Part shown: piece after piece, positions 13,300 through 43,136 of the stretch | Position numbering within the stretch: the first letter of the stretch is position 1 | Layout: each line of letters begins with the position of its first letter | NCBI RefSeq assembly: GCF_055900595.2 | Contig: NZ_CM148325.1 | Reading direction: 5' to 3' (one strand) | Length of the DNA stretch: 64,000 bases | Translations under genes and position numbers: made by a program | The notes under the pieces: model-generated | What the model was told of the DNA's origin: nothing | The model's input: only the letters and a program-made list of their open reading frames with translations | Database searches by the model: none

Positions 13300-13760
<461 letters not shown>

Positions 13761-13762
13761 GA

Positions 13763-15676
13763 TTACTTACGACCTGCCAGCAGTTCCAGCACTTCATCCA
13801 CGCTGGTGGTGTGCGCCAGACGCTCGATGACGGACTCATCATCCAGTGCGTTGGTCAGGCTGGTGATAACCTGAATGTGCTCGTTGTTACGGGCAGCAAT
13901 ACCAATCACCAGACGGGCAATGTCATCTTCTTCTTCACCGAAGCGCACGCCTTCCGGGTACTGGCAGAACACCACGCCCGTTTTCAGTACGCGATCTTTC
14001 GCTTCAACCGTACCGTGCGGTACCGCGATGGACTCACCCAGATAAGTCGGGGTCAGTTTTTCACGATCCAGCATCGCCTGAACGTATTCCGGCTCAACGT
14101 AACCGCCTTTCACCAGCTGCTCGCCAGCAAAACGAATCGCTTCTTCTTTGGTGGCCGCTTTGCGACCGAGGAAGATGTTCTCCGCGCCTAGCTTGAACAG
14201 GTTAGCACTGGAATCGTCAAAGCTGTCTTTCAGACTGTCTTTCACTTTTACTTCGTTTTCAGTATGGCGCTGGGCAGCAACCAGACGTTCGGTCAGGCTG
14301 GTGTACAGGCCGCTGTCGAGGAAGTTGGTCAGCGAAATATGCTGTGCCTGCGGAACCTGGCGCATAGCGCGTTCGGTCAGGTCACGGTGAGTGATGACCA
14401 GGTCCACATCTGGCGGCAGGTTGTTGATCGCGCTGTTAGTAACAGAAATCTGCGACAGACCTGCATCCTGAATTTTCTTACGCAGCACACCTGCGCCCAT
14501 CGCACTGGAACCCATACCGGCATCACAGGCAACGATGATTTTACGGACGTGGCTCAGGTCGTTAGTCACATCGCCAGCAGACAGCGGAGATGCGCCTTTA
14601 GATTCAGCTTTCATGTCCTGCATACGACGCGTTGCTGCTTCAATGTCATCTTCTTCTTTCACTTTGCTGGTTTTCAGCAGAATGGCAGAGACAACGAAGG
14701 AGACTGCCATCGCCGCACACACACCCGCTATGTTAGCGAAGTAAGCACCTTTTGGTGTCATCGCCAGTACCGCAAGGATAGAGCCCGGAGATGCCGGAGA
14801 AACCAGACCACCGCCCAGGATAGTCAGCGTGAATACGCCAGTCATACCACCGAGGATAACGGCCAGGATCAGACGCGGATTCATCAGCACATACGGGAAG
14901 TAGATTTCGTGGATACCCCCCAGGAAGTGAATGATTGCCGCACCGCCCGCAGACTGTTTAGCGCTACCACGACCAAAGAACATGTACGCCAGCAGAACAC
15001 CCATACCCGGACCTGGGTTAGCTTCAATCAGGAAGAAGATGGATTTACCCAGTTCATGGGACTGCTGAATACCCAGCGGCGAGAAGATACCGTGGTTAAT
15101 GGCGTTGTTGAGGAACAGGATTTTCGCCGGTTCAACAAAGATAGACGCCAGCGGCAGCATGTCATGGACAACCATGAAGTTAACGCCCGCAGCCAGCATT
15201 TTGGACAGGGCTTCAACAATCGGGCCAATGCCGAGGAACGCCAGAATAGCGAGGATCATCCCGATGATGCCTGCGGAGAAGTTATTCACCAGCATCTCAA
15301 AACCGGATTTGATCTTACCGTCTACCCAGCGGTCGAAGTGCTTAATGCACCAGCCGCCCAGCGGACCTGCAATCATAGAACCGAGGAACATCGGCATATC
15401 TGCGCCGACGATAACGCCCATTGTAGTGATGGCACCGACTACGCCGCCACGTTCGCCGCCTACCAGCTTACCACCGGTATAACCGATCAGCAGTGGCAGG
15501 AGATAAGTGATCATCGGCCCGACCAGCTTCGCCAGCGTTTCGTTCGGTAACCACCCTGTTGGAATAAATAGCGCGGTGATGATACCCCACGCGATAAACG
15601 CGCCGATATTTGGCATCACCATGTTGCTGAGGAAACGACCAAAGCTTTGCACTTTGATCTTAATATCGGATGACAT
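13763..15676 (-). CDS. mtlA: PTS mannitol-specific EIICBA component
   Basis: 637-aa ORF recognised as MtlA. Confidence 0.95.
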   Translation of the reverse strand: MSSDIKIKVQSFGRFLSNMVMPNIGAFIAWGIITALFIPTGWLPNETLAKLVGPMITYLLPLLIGYTGGKLVGGERGGVVGAITTMGVIVGADMPMFLGSMIAGPLGGWCIKHFDRWVDGKIKSGFEMLVNNFSAGIIGMILAILAFLGIGPIVEALSKMLAAGVNFMVVHDMLPLASIFVEPAKILFLNNAINHGIFSPLGIQQSHELGKSIFFLIEANPGPGMGVLLAYMFFGRGSAKQSAGGAAIIHFLGGIHEIYFPYVLMNPRLILAVILGGMTGVFTLTILGGGLVSPASPGSILAVLAMTPKGAYFANIAGVCAAMAVSFVVSAILLKTSKVKEEDDIEAATRRMQDMKAESKGASPLSAGDVTNDLSHVRKIIVACDAGMGSSAMGAGVLRKKIQDAGLSQISVTNSAINNLPPDVDLVITHRDLTERAMRQVPQAQHISLTNFLDSGLYTSLTERLVAAQRHTENEVKVKDSLKDSFDDSSANLFKLGAENIFLGRKAATKEEAIRFAGEQLVKGGYVEPEYVQAMLDREKLTPTYLGESIAVPHGTVEAKDRVLKTGVVFCQYPEGVRFGEEEDDIARLVIGIAARNNEHIQVITSLTNALDDESVIERLAHTTSVDEVLELLAGRK

Positions 15677-15819
15677 AAAAACACCCCTTCTTATGTTTGC
15701 TGTCGCGCAGGCTGGAAGCCCGAGGTTTTTTGTTAATGTGGCGGCAGAGGTAGCCGGACCTTGTTGATAGTGCGAAATCTGGCACTGAATCGGTTAACTG
15801 TCCAGTCGACGGCTTTTTG

Positions 15820-15996
15820 TGTGATATCGGTCACATAAATATAGGGGGTAGAGAGGTAATTGACGTGATGTGCATCACAAAATACTTGTGTAAAAAAGCA
15901 ACAAGACGGCGATTTTCGCTAAAAATGGCATTTAAATGTGAGTAATGTCACATTTTTGTTTTGTTGGTTTGTTGAATCTTTGTGATCTGAATCACA
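15820..15996. promoter_or_regulatory. mtl promoter region with several CRP-type palindromes
   Basis: tgtgatatcggtcaca (15820..15835) and tgtgatctgaatcaca (15981..15996) both fit TGTGA-N6-TCACA; gtgatgtgcatcac (15865..15878) is a further perfect palindrome. Confidence 0.65.
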
Positions 15997-16212
15997 AGAT
16001 ATTTTCTTACGGCGTTCACCTGATGTGATCTGCAGCATGTTATGCCTTCGTCATAAAATCGTTATGTAACTAAGCAACTCATCACCTCTAAAAATTATTC
16101 TTTGGTGTTATGGCGAGAATCGCGAACCCGAATTATTGTCAAAATATCAGCCTGACTCCCTTCTGGCTGCCAGCCAAAAAACAACACCGATAAACGTGAA
16201 TCCGAGGCAGAT

Positions 16213-16575
16213 ATGTTTCTAAACTATTTCGCGTTGGGAGTGCTGATCTTCGTCTTTCTGGTGATTTTTTATGTAATCATCGCGATACATGACATCCCTT
16301 ATCTGATTGCCAAAAAGCGCAATCACCCCCATGCCGACGCTATTCATACGGCGGGCTGGGTGAGCCTGTTTACTCTGCATGTTATCTGGCCGTTCCTGTG
16401 GATCTGGGCGACGCTCTATCAACCGGAGCGTGGCTGGGGTATGCAGTCACATGTTGCGTCGCAGGAGAAAGCGACTGACCCGGAAATCGCCGCACTTTCT
16501 GACCGAATTTCCCGGCTGGAGCATCAACTCGCCGCCGAGAAAAAGACTGACTATTCCACGTTCCCGGAGATCTAA
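16213..16575 (+). CDS. yibI: DUF3302-family small inner-membrane protein
   Basis: 120-aa ORF with two hydrophobic helices and a C-terminal coiled-coil tail; paralog of the ORF at 26155..26478. Confidence 0.85.
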
Positions 16576-16577
16576 AT

Positions 16578-17714
16578 ATGGATCTATTGATTGTTTTAAC
16601 TTACGTGGCGCTGGCGTGGGCGGTCTTTAAAATCTTCCGCATTCCGGTAAATCAGTGGACGCTGGCGACGGCGGCGCTGGGAGGCGTGTTTCTGGTGAGT
16701 GGTTTGATTTTGTTGATGAACTACAACCACCCTTACACTTTTACCGCACAGAAAGCGGTGATTGCTATTCCCATCACGCCACAGGTGACGGGGATCGTGA
16801 CTGAAGTCACTGACAAGAATAATCAGCTCATTCAGAAGGGCGAGGTGCTTTTTAAGCTCGACCCGGTACGTTATCAGGCGCGAGTCGACAGACTTCAGGC
16901 TGACCTGATGACGGCGACGCATAATATAAAGACACTGCGCGCGCAGCTCACTGAAGCGCAAGCCAATACCACCCAGGTTTCAGCGGAGCGTGACCGCTTG
17001 TTTAAAAATTATCAACGTTACCTGAAAGGCAGCCAAGCGGCGGTAAATCCGTTCTCAGAACGTGATATCGACGATGCGCGGCAGAATTTTCTCGCGCAGG
17101 ATGCGCTGGTGAAAGGCTCGGTGGCGGAACAGGCGCAAATCCAGAGCCAGCTCGACAGTATGGTTAACGGTGAGCAGTCGCAGATTGTCAGCTTAAGGGC
17201 GCAGCTTACCGAAGCGAAATATAACCTTGAGCAGACCGTCATTCGCGCGCCGAGCAATGGCTACGTCACTCAGGTGCTGATCCGCCCAGGTACATACGCA
17301 GCTGCCTTGCCGTTGCGTCCGGTAATGGTTTTCATCCCTGAGCAAAAACGGCAAATTGTCGCCCAATTTCGGCAAAACTCGCTGTTACGTCTGAAACCCG
17401 GCGATGATGCGGAAGTGGTGTTTAACGCGCTACCTGGGCAGGTGTTCCACGGCAAACTGACTAGTATTTTACCTGTCGTGCCAGGCGGTTCGTATCAGGC
17501 GCAAGGGGTATTGCAATCATTAACGGTCGTGCCCGGCACGGACGGTGTGCTGGGAACCATTGAACTGGACCCTAACGATGATATCGATGCTTTACCCGAC
17601 GGCATCTACGCCCAGGTGGCAGTTTACTCCGACCATTTCAGCCATGTTTCGGTGATGCGGAAGGTGCTGCTAAGAATGACCAGTTGGATGCATTATCTTT
17701 ATTTGGATCATTGA
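16578..17714 (+). CDS. yibH: HlyD-family membrane-fusion (periplasmic adaptor) protein
   Basis: 378-aa ORF with N-terminal TM helix, coiled-coil region and beta-barrel domain; starts 2 bp after yibI; paralog of yiaV. Confidence 0.85.
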
Positions 17715-41088: not shown

Positions 41089-42087
41089 TTATAACGCCTG
41101 GATTTTTGCCCATACGCTGTCATCAACGGTAATACCGTTACGGCGGTTTTCTGCCAGCAGGGTGGTAAATTCGTGGCCGGGTAAGCGGATGGCCTGGTTT
41201 TCGTCAGCGCGTTCAGCGGTAGTAACGTAATCCATGATGCGTTGCAGCTTGGCATCGCGGGTGGGGCCGTCGATCAATTTATCCACTTCGATGGCGATAA
41301 AGATTTGCGAAACACCGTATTCGTCGCTGTTATCCTGGGTGACTTCAGCAACTGACGCGCCGTCAGAAAGAAGAGTAGCGATCATATCCAATACGATCGA
41401 CATACCGGAACCTTTCCAATAGCCCATCGGCAAAATTCGACGATTTTTCTCGATAACGCCAGGTTCTTTGGTCAAATTGCCCTCATCATCAAAGCCACCA
41501 TCGACCGGGAGCTGACGGCCCGCCAGGCGGTTAACTTCTAACATGCCATAAGAGAACATCGACATCGACATATCGACCATGGTGATTGGGGTAGAAGGAA
41601 TGGCGACGATCAGCGGGTTGGTGCCGATGCGACACTCTTTTGCGCCCCACGGCGGCATTACGGCGATGGAGTTGGTCCAGCAAATGCCAATATAGCCTTT
41701 TTCCGCCGCCTGCCAGCCGTAGCTGCCGCCGCGCATCCAGTGGTTGGCATTACGTAGAGCCACCAGACCAATACCGTGATCGGCAGCCAGTTCGATGGCG
41801 CGATCCATCATCTTTTTCGCTGTCAGGTTACCGATCGAACGCTGGGCGTCCCACTGTTCAATTGCGCCGAGGCTGGTTATACGTTTGGGTTGGGCATCAG
41901 GAATGATATCGCCGTTTTCCAGTTGTTGAATGAAACGAGGGAAACGGTTGACGCCGTGAGAATAAACGCCGGATTCGGTGGTGCGGGCGAACATTTCGGC
42001 ACAGGCATCAGCCGTTTCGCTGTCAACGCCGCGTGAAATTAAGACTCGATTAAAGGCTGCTTTTAACTGCTCAAATGTCACTTTCAT
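41089..42087 (-). CDS. yiaK: 2,3-diketo-L-gulonate reductase
   Basis: 332-aa ORF recognised as YiaK; first gene of the yiaK-sgbE operon. Confidence 0.9.
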
Positions 42088-42287
42088 CCCTGGCTTCCTT
42101 GTTTTTTTGATCGCTTTTTTGGCTTAAAATTTCAATATGCGAAATCTGATTTCAAATATATCGATCGCTTTTTAACAAAGCAATCTGATTGATGAATTTC
42201 AAAAAACTTAAAAATCAAGTGGTTATAAATTATCTGTCGAGATCGTGAACTACGACACACTTTGCGCTACCATCAGGACGCGACAAA

Positions 42288-43136
42288 ATGGGGAAAGAAG
42301 TGATGGGAAAAAAAGAGAACGAGATGGCGCAGGAAAAAGAGCGTCCAGCCGGAAGCCAGAGTCTGTTTCGCGGGTTGATGCTGATTGAGATTTTGAGCAA
42401 CTATCCAAACGGTTGTCCGTTGGCGCATCTTTCGGAGCTGGCTGGTTTAAATAAGAGTACCGTCCATCGCTTATTGCAGGGATTACAATCCTGCGGCTAT
42501 GTGACCACCGCGCCCGCCGCAGGGAGTTACCGCCTGACTACCAAATTTATTGCCGTCGGGCAGAAGGCGCTGTCTTCGCTGAATATCATTCATATCGCCG
42601 CTCCGCATCTTGAGGCACTGAACATCGCCACTGGTGAAACCATTAACTTCTCCAGCCGCGAAGACGATCACGCTATTTTGATTTATAAGCTGGAACCCAC
42701 GACCGGGATGCTGCGAACCCGAGCTTATATAGGCCAGCATATGCCGCTCTACTGTTCCGCAATGGGCAAGATCTACATGGCGTTTGGTCACCCGGACTAC
42801 GTGAAGTCATACTGGGAAAGCCATCAGCATGAGATCCAGCCGTTAACCCGCAATACCATTACCGAGCTGCCCGCGATGTTCGACGAACTGGCGCACATTC
42901 GTGAAAGCGGAGCGGCGATGGACAGAGAAGAAAACGAACTCGGCGTCTCCTGTATTGCTGTTCCGGTGTTTGATATTCATGGGCGGGTGCCGTACGCCGT
43001 GTCGATTTCTCTTTCGACATCACGTCTGAAACAGGTGGGGGAGAAAAATCTCCTGAAACCACTGCGTGAAACCGCGCAGGCTATTTCTAATGAACTGGGA
43101 TTTACTGTCAGGGACGACCAGGGCGCGATCACATAA
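42288..43136 (+). CDS. yiaJ: IclR-family repressor of the yiaK-sgbE operon
   Basis: 282-aa ORF with N-terminal HTH; divergent from yiaK. Confidence 0.9.
   Translation: MGKEVMGKKENEMAQEKERPAGSQSLFRGLMLIEILSNYPNGCPLAHLSELAGLNKSTVHRLLQGLQSCGYVTTAPAAGSYRLTTKFIAVGQKALSSLNIIHIAAPHLEALNIATGETINFSSREDDHAILIYKLEPTTGMLRTRAYIGQHMPLYCSAMGKIYMAFGHPDYVKSYWESHQHEIQPLTRNTITELPAMFDELAHIRESGAAMDREENELGVSCIAVPVFDIHGRVPYAVSISLSTSRLKQVGEKNLLKPLRETAQAISNELGFTVRDDQGAIT

Follow-up and report, generated by a model that had tools for sequence, protein, structure and literature searches.

The region described here is an intergenic spacer of 200 bp (42088-42287, 34.5% G+C) between two divergent genes, within a stretch of DNA of 64 kb that we refer to throughout as the window. 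The window is E. coli DNA; when 600 bp across the spacer were used as a query, 4991 of 5426 complete E. coli genomes gave a match, among them one with 100% identity and K-12 with approximately 97.5%. To the left, on the minus strand, lies yiaK (41089-42087), an ORF that scores 671 bits against the NCBIfam equivalog for 3-dehydro-L-gulonate 2-dehydrogenase (cut-off 316), and the RefSeq annotation of the E. coli genome that is 100% identical over the 600-bp query gives the gene the same identity. According to the RefSeq annotation, yiaK is the first gene of the minus-strand operon yiaK-sgbE (yiaKLMNO-lyxK-sgbHUE), in which it is followed by yiaL-yiaMNO-lyxK-sgbH-sgbU-sgbE.

To the right, on the plus strand, lies yiaJ (annotated as 42288-43136), which encodes an IclR-family repressor in which Pfam recognises HTH_IclR and IclR_C. 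Among NCBIfam models, YiaJ fits KdgR best (1.3e-46), with 159 bits against a cut-off of 275; falling under the equivalog cut-off, YiaJ is to be regarded as a KdgR paralogue, and the yiaK operator therefore belongs to a different regulon. YiaJ was renamed PlaR by Shimada et al. 2019 (PMC6958661). A preliminary description had placed the spacer between an IclR-type yiaJ and the yiaK-sgbE operon, and here the profile matches and the annotation agree.

This divergent yiaK-sgbE/yiaJ control region is already characterised in E. coli, having been studied for its part in the use of L-ascorbate and 2,3-diketo-L-gulonate. What can be added is modest: a conserved third half-site next to the operator, a polymorphism of the operator among E. 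coli strains, and a yiaJ start codon that is probably mis-annotated.

Probable promoters and start codons, and the CRP and IHF sites

The yiaK promoter elements were read from the sequence on the minus strand, where a candidate -10 element, TATATT (42155-42160), is separated by a 17-bp spacer from a candidate -35 element, TTGCTT (42178-42183). The former is 99% conserved across 44 non-Escherichia spacers, and the TTG of the latter (CAA on the plus strand) is conserved to the same extent. A strict sigma-70 scan called no promoter here, TTGCTT-17-TATATT agreeing with the consensus at 8 of 12 positions. A match below the strict threshold is what one would expect of an activator-dependent promoter, and should not be mistaken for the absence of a promoter. 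Transcription of yiaK would begin near 42147, at a purine eight bases downstream of the -10 element that coincides with the centre of the palindrome discussed below. In agreement with this position, the 5' end of yiaK has reportedly been mapped 60 bp upstream of the ATG, and YiaJ is said to bind a fragment extending from -50 to +121.

Two other readings of the transcribed strand were rejected. The first is an RNA leader or riboswitch; no Rfam match was found in the region (E-value of at most 1), and the 63-nt yiaK leader folds at -3 kcal/mol with z = +1.43 relative to shuffles, making it less structured than shuffled sequence. The second is a small ORF within the spacer (42132-42260, minus strand, 42 aa), for which a conserved peptide is unlikely since 42186-42212 varies in both sequence and length among genera.

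For yiaJ, the probable -10 element is TACCAT (42268-42273, plus strand), situated inside the 99%-conserved block CTTTGCGCTACCATC (42260-42274). The annotated start codon should be viewed with caution. The ATG at 42288 is AAG or some other codon in other Escherichia and in other genera, and it lies within a conserved, purine-rich Shine-Dalgarno sequence (GGGGA/GGAG); this sequence, together with the ATG at 42303 (Met6), is conserved in 21 of 22 aligned sequences. Translation probably starts at 42303, in which case the annotation would be five codons too long, the protein 277 aa in length, and the spacer 215 bp.

The preliminary description had drawn attention to three words, each occurring twice in the spacer as a direct repeat, and had offered them as YiaJ operator half-sites or as CRP or IHF sites. 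All three pairs are present exactly as described, on the plus strand. Numbering from the yiaK start that we infer at 42147, GATCGCTTTTT occurs in the yiaK 5' leader (copy 1, 42109-42119, about +29 to +39) and in the spacer between the -10 and -35 elements (copy 2, 42163-42173, about -16 to -26). AATCTGATT is found within the YiaJ operator region (copy 1, 42143-42151) and again where it overlaps and flanks the yiaK -35 (copy 2, 42182-42190, about -35 to -43). TTTCAAA occupies the region of the right operator arm (copy 1, 42150-42156) and a TTTT[C/T]AAA tract 5' of the IHF core (copy 2, 42197-42203, about -50 to -56).

The CRP site, GATCGTGAACTACGACACACTT (42241-42262), has the core CGTGA-N6-ACACA (42244-42259), which matches TGTGA-N6-TCACA at 8 of 10 positions; its majority base averages a frequency of 95% in the 44 non-Escherichia spacers. 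With its centre at 42251.5 the site would lie at about -104.5, that is, 1-2 bp away from the centre of about -106 reported for CRP site 1; cAMP-CRP is said to bind two sites in the region, only site 1 being essential. The same site overlaps the yiaJ -35 region, which fits the reported lowering of yiaJ expression by cAMP-CRP. It is also the site given for yiaK, at -175 from the ATG, in Table 2 of Price 2008, and both yiaK and yiaJ are listed in CRP feed-forward tables derived from RegulonDB.

The IHF core, AATCAAGTGGTTA (42213-42225, plus strand), is an exact match to WATCAANNNNTTR and is conserved out to distant genera, AAAATCAAnnnnTT being kept across genera. It is preceded by TTTCAAAAAACTTAAA, an A/T-rich tract (approximately 42197-42212) that contains the second TTTCAAA, and would be positioned at about -72 from the yiaK start. 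Control of yiaK by IHF has reportedly been described. The CRP site and the IHF core both fall outside all six flagged words, and the words themselves do not make up the CRP site. The sole word to touch either is TTTCAAA copy 2, which belongs to the tract preceding the core and is covered by a weak match to the CRP consensus at 42188-42203.

That weak match, ATTGATGAATTTCAAA, takes in the last letters of AATCTGATT copy 2 and the whole of TTTCAAA copy 2, and could be read as a second, weak CRP site. It is the second-best TGTGA-N6-TCACA match inside the spacer (3 mismatches, centre at about -48.5), and it may or may not be site 2 of the two CRP sites said to exist in the region. A match with 3 mismatches in 10 positions is weak, however, and even those with 2 or fewer number 31 in the window versus 26 expected; moreover, other genera do not keep its left arm, and a centre at -48.5 is non-standard for class I or class II. 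We regard a second CRP site at this position as unlikely, and it would in any event be compatible with the explanation that we prefer. Another CRP-like match with 3 mismatches spans the yiaK start codon (42076-42091).

The probable YiaJ/PlaR operator

The candidate core operator for YiaJ/PlaR is a perfect inverted repeat, GAAAT-CTG-ATTTC (42141-42153, centre 42147), embedded in an imperfect extended palindrome (42135-42159). As GAAATCTGATTTC, it is the sole zero-mismatch match within the 64 kb. Relative to the inferred yiaK start the operator spans +7 to -6, and it overlaps the inferred -10 and start site.

Conservation was assessed with 80 YiaJ-orthologue loci, one genome per species. The divergent neighbour of the yiaJ orthologue is yiaK in 59 of them and, in 12 of 13 other loci examined, an ABC-transporter ATPase gene; loci of the ATPase type occur in Kosakonia, Phytobacter, Raoultella, Serratia, Pectobacterium, Yersinia, and Edwardsiella, among others. 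Whether beside yiaK or beside the ABC ATPase, the module ATTTCA-N6-GAAAT-N3-ATTTCAAA is present upstream of yiaJ in 76 of the 80. Among these 76 loci the middle GAAAT (42141-42145) is kept in 66 and the right-hand ATTTC (42149-42153) in 73, while the central triplet (42146-42148) takes 12 different forms. Invariant arms around a free centre are the pattern of an operator for a dimeric helix-turn-helix protein. In the 44 non-Escherichia spacers, the segment 42143-42156, which comprises copy 1 of both AATCTGATT and TTTCAAA, is 97-99% conserved. A symmetrised position weight matrix (PWM), derived from the 17 different 17-mers of the orthologous loci, scores centre 42147 at 24.2 bits, and the next best position anywhere in the window reaches 10.9 bits.

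The published PlaR box is the palindromic ATnTGAAACnnnGTTCAnTT, described as similar to the KdgR box and as overlapping the promoter of yiaK (Shimada 2019, PMC6958661). Read on the opposite strand, 42137-42157 (ATTTGAAATCAGATTTCGCAT) agrees with ATnTGAAACnnnGTT(T)CAnTT at 14 of the 18 specified positions. In the same study, the plaR-yiaK spacer was the strongest PlaR target in gSELEX and gel-shift experiments, L-ascorbate and galacturonate released PlaR from DNA, the likeness of the KdgR and PlaR boxes was noted, and co-regulation was proposed (Shimada 2019, PMC6958661). Deletion of yiaJ strongly derepresses the operon, and ChIP-exo placed two YiaJ peaks in the spacer, one of them at the position of RNA polymerase on the yiaK promoter (Gao et al. 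2018); set against these two peaks, the E. coli spacer contains only one strong PWM site.

As in KdgR-type operators, one finds here an arm-type inverted repeat, conserved arms with a free centre, and a linked gene of the IclR family. The exact bases that YiaJ would contact are assigned from conservation and from the fit to the PlaR box, and the conservation of 42149-42160 could be partly due to the -10 element and start site rather than to YiaJ contacts. By pairing, ATTTC and GAAAT could also give the mRNA a 5-bp hairpin at its 5' end; variants of the middle arm (such as GGAAT and GATAT), however, occur without a compensating change in the left arm, so conservation at the level of DNA is to be preferred. 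The researcher should also keep in mind that the perfect palindrome of this window, GAAAT-CTG-ATTTC, is a minority allele, K-12 having GAAAC-TTG-ATTTC.

The suggestion that the repeats are operator half-sites thus survives in part. Copy 1 of AATCTGATT and of TTTCAAA are the centre and right arm of the best-fitting operator. The direct-repeat form of the operator does not stand, since the element is an inverted repeat and AATCTGATT lies mostly over its freely variable centre. The GATCGCTTTTT pair, located in the yiaK leader and in the spacer between -10 and -35, is not kept as a pair and drops out as a candidate.

In a more elaborate arrangement, the AATC-T-GATT palindromes centred at 42147 and at 42186, a distance of 39 bp, would serve as main and auxiliary YiaJ operators, acting cooperatively and bracketing the yiaK core promoter. 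Both copies are indeed small palindromes (GAAATCTGATTTC and CAATCTGATTG), AATCTGATT copy 2 overlaps the -35, and the two ChIP-exo peaks in the spacer (Gao et al. 2018) would be accommodated. In addition, the copy-2 segment is kept in seven sampled E. coli genomes outside the divergent type of the GTDB representative, a type that should fall in the small band of 90-95% identity (161 of 4986 genomes). Copy 2, however, is without the conserved arms (GCAAT and ATTGA versus GAAAT and ATTTC), and the PWM, which gives 24.2 bits for copy 1, falls below -7.5 bits at centre 42186. Identity to the window in the 44 non-Escherichia yiaK-yiaJ spacers is 97% for copy 1 and 45% for copy 2, and within Escherichia the GTDB representative of E. 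coli carries AATCCACGC in place of copy 2, and E. whittamii AATCCGCAC. The central triplet, the very part of the operator that varies freely, accounts for most of what the copies have in common. Judged by these comparisons, AATCTGATT copy 2 is Escherichia-specific and not operator-like, and we consider an auxiliary operator there very unlikely.

Beside the single palindrome there is a third conserved half-site, ATTTCA (42129-42134), 20 bp from the right-hand ATTTCA and spanning +14 to +19 from the inferred yiaK start. Its ATTTC (42129-42133) is kept in 72 of the 76 loci, out to Serratia, Pectobacterium, Yersinia, and Edwardsiella, a conservation as deep as that of the palindrome, and its position (centre 42127) is the second best for the PWM inside the spacer, at 5.2 bits. 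It lies outside the published 21-bp PlaR box and has apparently gone undescribed so far. In Mangrovibacter the whole three-part element, gaATTTGAAATttgATTTCGCATATTGAAAc, recurs downstream of yiaJ, ahead of an ABC-ATPase gene, and keeps its orientation with respect to the gene under control; in locus L057 it is found at 3559-3592 (also in L059 and L060) as ATTTGAAATttgATTTCGCATATTGAAAc, upstream of a 524-aa ABC-transporter ATPase gene directly after yiaJ. With this second element, one has a genome with two YiaJ-type operators.

The deep conservation of the third half-site and its recurrence in Mangrovibacter suggest that a second dimer could use it. Tentatively, and with rather less than even confidence, we propose that the operator has three parts, ATTTCA-N6-GAAAT-N3-ATTTCA (42129-42154), and that YiaJ may bind it as a tetramer, one dimer on the palindrome at +1 and the second on the half-operator. 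If this is true, strain differences in the perfection of the palindrome could set different levels of repression.

Several observations were made on the module in other genomes. It seems that the regulator and its operator travel together between different sets of catabolic or transport genes; in many genera the operator/promoter module is kept where the gene divergent from yiaJ encodes an ABC-transporter ATPase (sugar-type, about 506-528 aa) in place of yiaK. In Serratia, Pectobacterium, Yersinia, and Brenneria roseae, the CRP site is separated from the yiaJ -10 by an inserted segment with a further KdgR/PlaR-type box (AATGAAACGGCGTTCCA, ACAATGAAACGGCGTTCCA), which could plausibly be an autoregulatory operator. 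E. coli is without this second box, and the CRP site occupies the corresponding position. In NZ_CP025268, a derivative of MG1655, galK is inserted in the yiaK-yiaJ spacer just upstream of the operator; as this is an engineered strain, its "split" spacer was rejected as natural variation.

Status of the repeated words

The repeats in this sequence are real and mildly unusual. An exact direct repeat of at least 11 nt occurs in 1.5% of 2000 dinucleotide-preserving shuffles of the 200-bp spacer, and one of at least 11 nt plus a separate one of at least 9 nt in 0.25% of them. TTTCAAA alone is not enriched, with 10 occurrences in the 64-kb window versus 14.6 expected.

The wider sampling of E. coli shows that repeats which are exact in one genome may be accidental to its allele. 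Of 4986 E. coli genomes, 330 contain the 95-nt stretch with all the repeats in exactly this form. For the 35-mer around the operator, the version with AATCTGATT copy 1 is present in 579 genomes and the K-12 form, in which AACTTGATT takes its place, in 3088; both copies of AATCTGATT are present in at most about 12% of E. coli genomes. K-12 further has GATCACTTTTT in place of GATCGCTTTTT copy 2; its spacer is likewise 200 bp long, free of indels relative to that of the window. Among eight sampled E. coli genomes, AATCTGATT stands at the copy-1 position in three, and AACTTGATT was found in six, K-12 counted.

Beyond Escherichia, identity to the window in the 44 spacers is 99% for TTTCAAA copy 1 and 84% for copy 2, and 84% and 70% for the two copies of GATCGCTTTTT. 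At GATCGCTTTTT copy 1 the T-run is kept in Enterobacteriaceae and the GATC is not, and the E. coli GTDB representative has GAACGC; at the position of copy 2, other genera carry GATCAAATTTT. A direct-repeat operator should keep both copies in orthologues; instead, K-12 and most E. coli are without both exact pairs.

The GATC within the 11-mers raises the matter of control elements sensitive to Dam methylation. GATC occurs three times in the spacer (at 42109, 42163, and 42241), the sites at 42163 and 42241 being conserved within Enterobacteriaceae; nevertheless, no GATC site is conserved in Serratia, Pectobacterium, Yersinia, or Rahnella, the GTDB representative of E. coli has GAAC where copy 1 has GATC, and a literature search found no link between yiaJ and GATC methylation. 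We consider such control highly improbable.

Least credible of all is the idea that a promoter-operator module of about 50 bp was once duplicated in tandem and has left these words as a remnant, as might be imagined from GATCGCTTTTT, AATCTGATT, and TTTCAAA following one another twice in the same order (start-to-start offsets of 54, 39, and 47 bp; joint repeat statistic p = 0.0025 in this allele). Local alignment of the halves gives p = 0.015 in this allele only, through the 11-mer alone; for K-12 the value is p = 0.13, and the non-Escherichia orthologues tested range over 0.05-0.83. The halves align significantly over their full length in none of 13 orthologues tested. A minority lineage of E. 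coli shows the likeness most sharply and the outgroups do not show it, the reverse of what a decaying old duplication should leave.

With second copies less conserved than the first and halves whose alignment is marginal, and that in this allele only, neither a tandem duplication nor a direct-repeat operator is supported. The repeated words are short similarities that overlie working parts of the spacer and are not functional units in themselves, copy 1 of AATCTGATT and of TTTCAAA being the only ones in the operator. Each flagged word can be mapped onto a known or inferred element, which has little significance beyond tidying up.

Two minor observations concern the same part of the spacer. The segment 42186-42215, from the yiaK -35 to the IHF core, is variable within E. 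coli; in the GTDB representative strain there is a block replacement (AATCCACGCTGTG... versus AATCTGATTGATG...), which looks like recombination between alleles rather than point mutation. On the minus strand of 42163-42185, within the promoter spacer of yiaK, an imperfect inverted repeat of 9 bp made by GATCGCTTT and AAAGCAATC was flagged as terminator-like. Other genera have GATCAAATTTTGACAGATC there, so the inverted repeat is not conserved and is probably incidental.

Proposed control of yiaK-sgbE and yiaJ

Taken as a whole, the spacer is in our opinion best explained by a KdgR-type YiaJ operator with an extra half-site, a weak yiaK promoter aided by CRP and IHF, and a CRP site placed over the yiaJ -35; we hold this with good, though not complete, confidence. 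The binding of YiaJ, its repression of the operon, its effectors, and the CRP site are taken from the literature. Since the operator covers the -10 and start site, YiaJ bound to GAAAT-N3-ATTTC should exclude RNA polymerase from the yiaK promoter or block the open complex. The second dimer of a YiaJ tetramer would probably sit on the ATTTCA half-site two helical turns downstream (42129-42134). Release of YiaJ by L-ascorbate or galacturonate would lift repression, and the weak promoter (TTGCTT-17-TATATT) would then depend on CRP at about -104.5, IHF at about -72 probably bending the DNA so as to bring CRP within reach. The same CRP site, lying over the yiaJ -35, would lower synthesis of the repressor while the operon is being activated.

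Comparable systems are known. KdgR operators (in Dickeya/Erwinia and in E. coli; IclR family) have a consensus of the type TGAAA-N5-TTTCA, and the yiaK operator uses the same half-site words and spacing; the difference is that YiaJ is a paralogue under the KdgR cut-off, with a different regulon. Tetrameric repressors of the IclR family that act on extended operators include TtgV on ttgG and IclR on aceB. The palindrome overlapping the promoter and the extra conserved sequence two turns away would be analogous to these, although for YiaJ both the oligomeric state and contact with the third half-site are proposals. With its weak -35, its CRP site at about -104.5, and its exact IHF core at about -72, the yiaK promoter resembles those at which an IHF bend brings a distal CRP near. 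It differs in that the same CRP site also overlaps the divergent yiaJ promoter, and the geometry is read from sequence alone. The closest relative is naturally the K-12 PlaR box (Shimada 2019, PMC6958661), with the same locus and genes, a fit at 42137-42157, and the same overlap of the yiaK promoter; the window differs in carrying the minority allele with its perfect palindrome, and the third half-site is additional to that box.

Elsewhere in the window, four strong CRP cores (TGTGATATCGGTCACA, CGTGATGTGCATCACA, TGTGAGTAATGTCACA, and TGTGATCTGAATCACA) are clustered within 180 bp (15820-15996, and 16025-16035), upstream of a 637-aa ORF on the minus strand (13763-15676). We take this ORF to be mtlA, and the cluster should then be the known multi-CRP mannitol promoter. 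NZ_CP148331, which is 100% identical over 600 bp at yiaK-yiaJ, is not collinear with the window near mtlA (approximately 13700-16600), the offset differing by about 880 bp; the window therefore comes from a different strain than NZ_CP148331, or there is an indel between the two regions.
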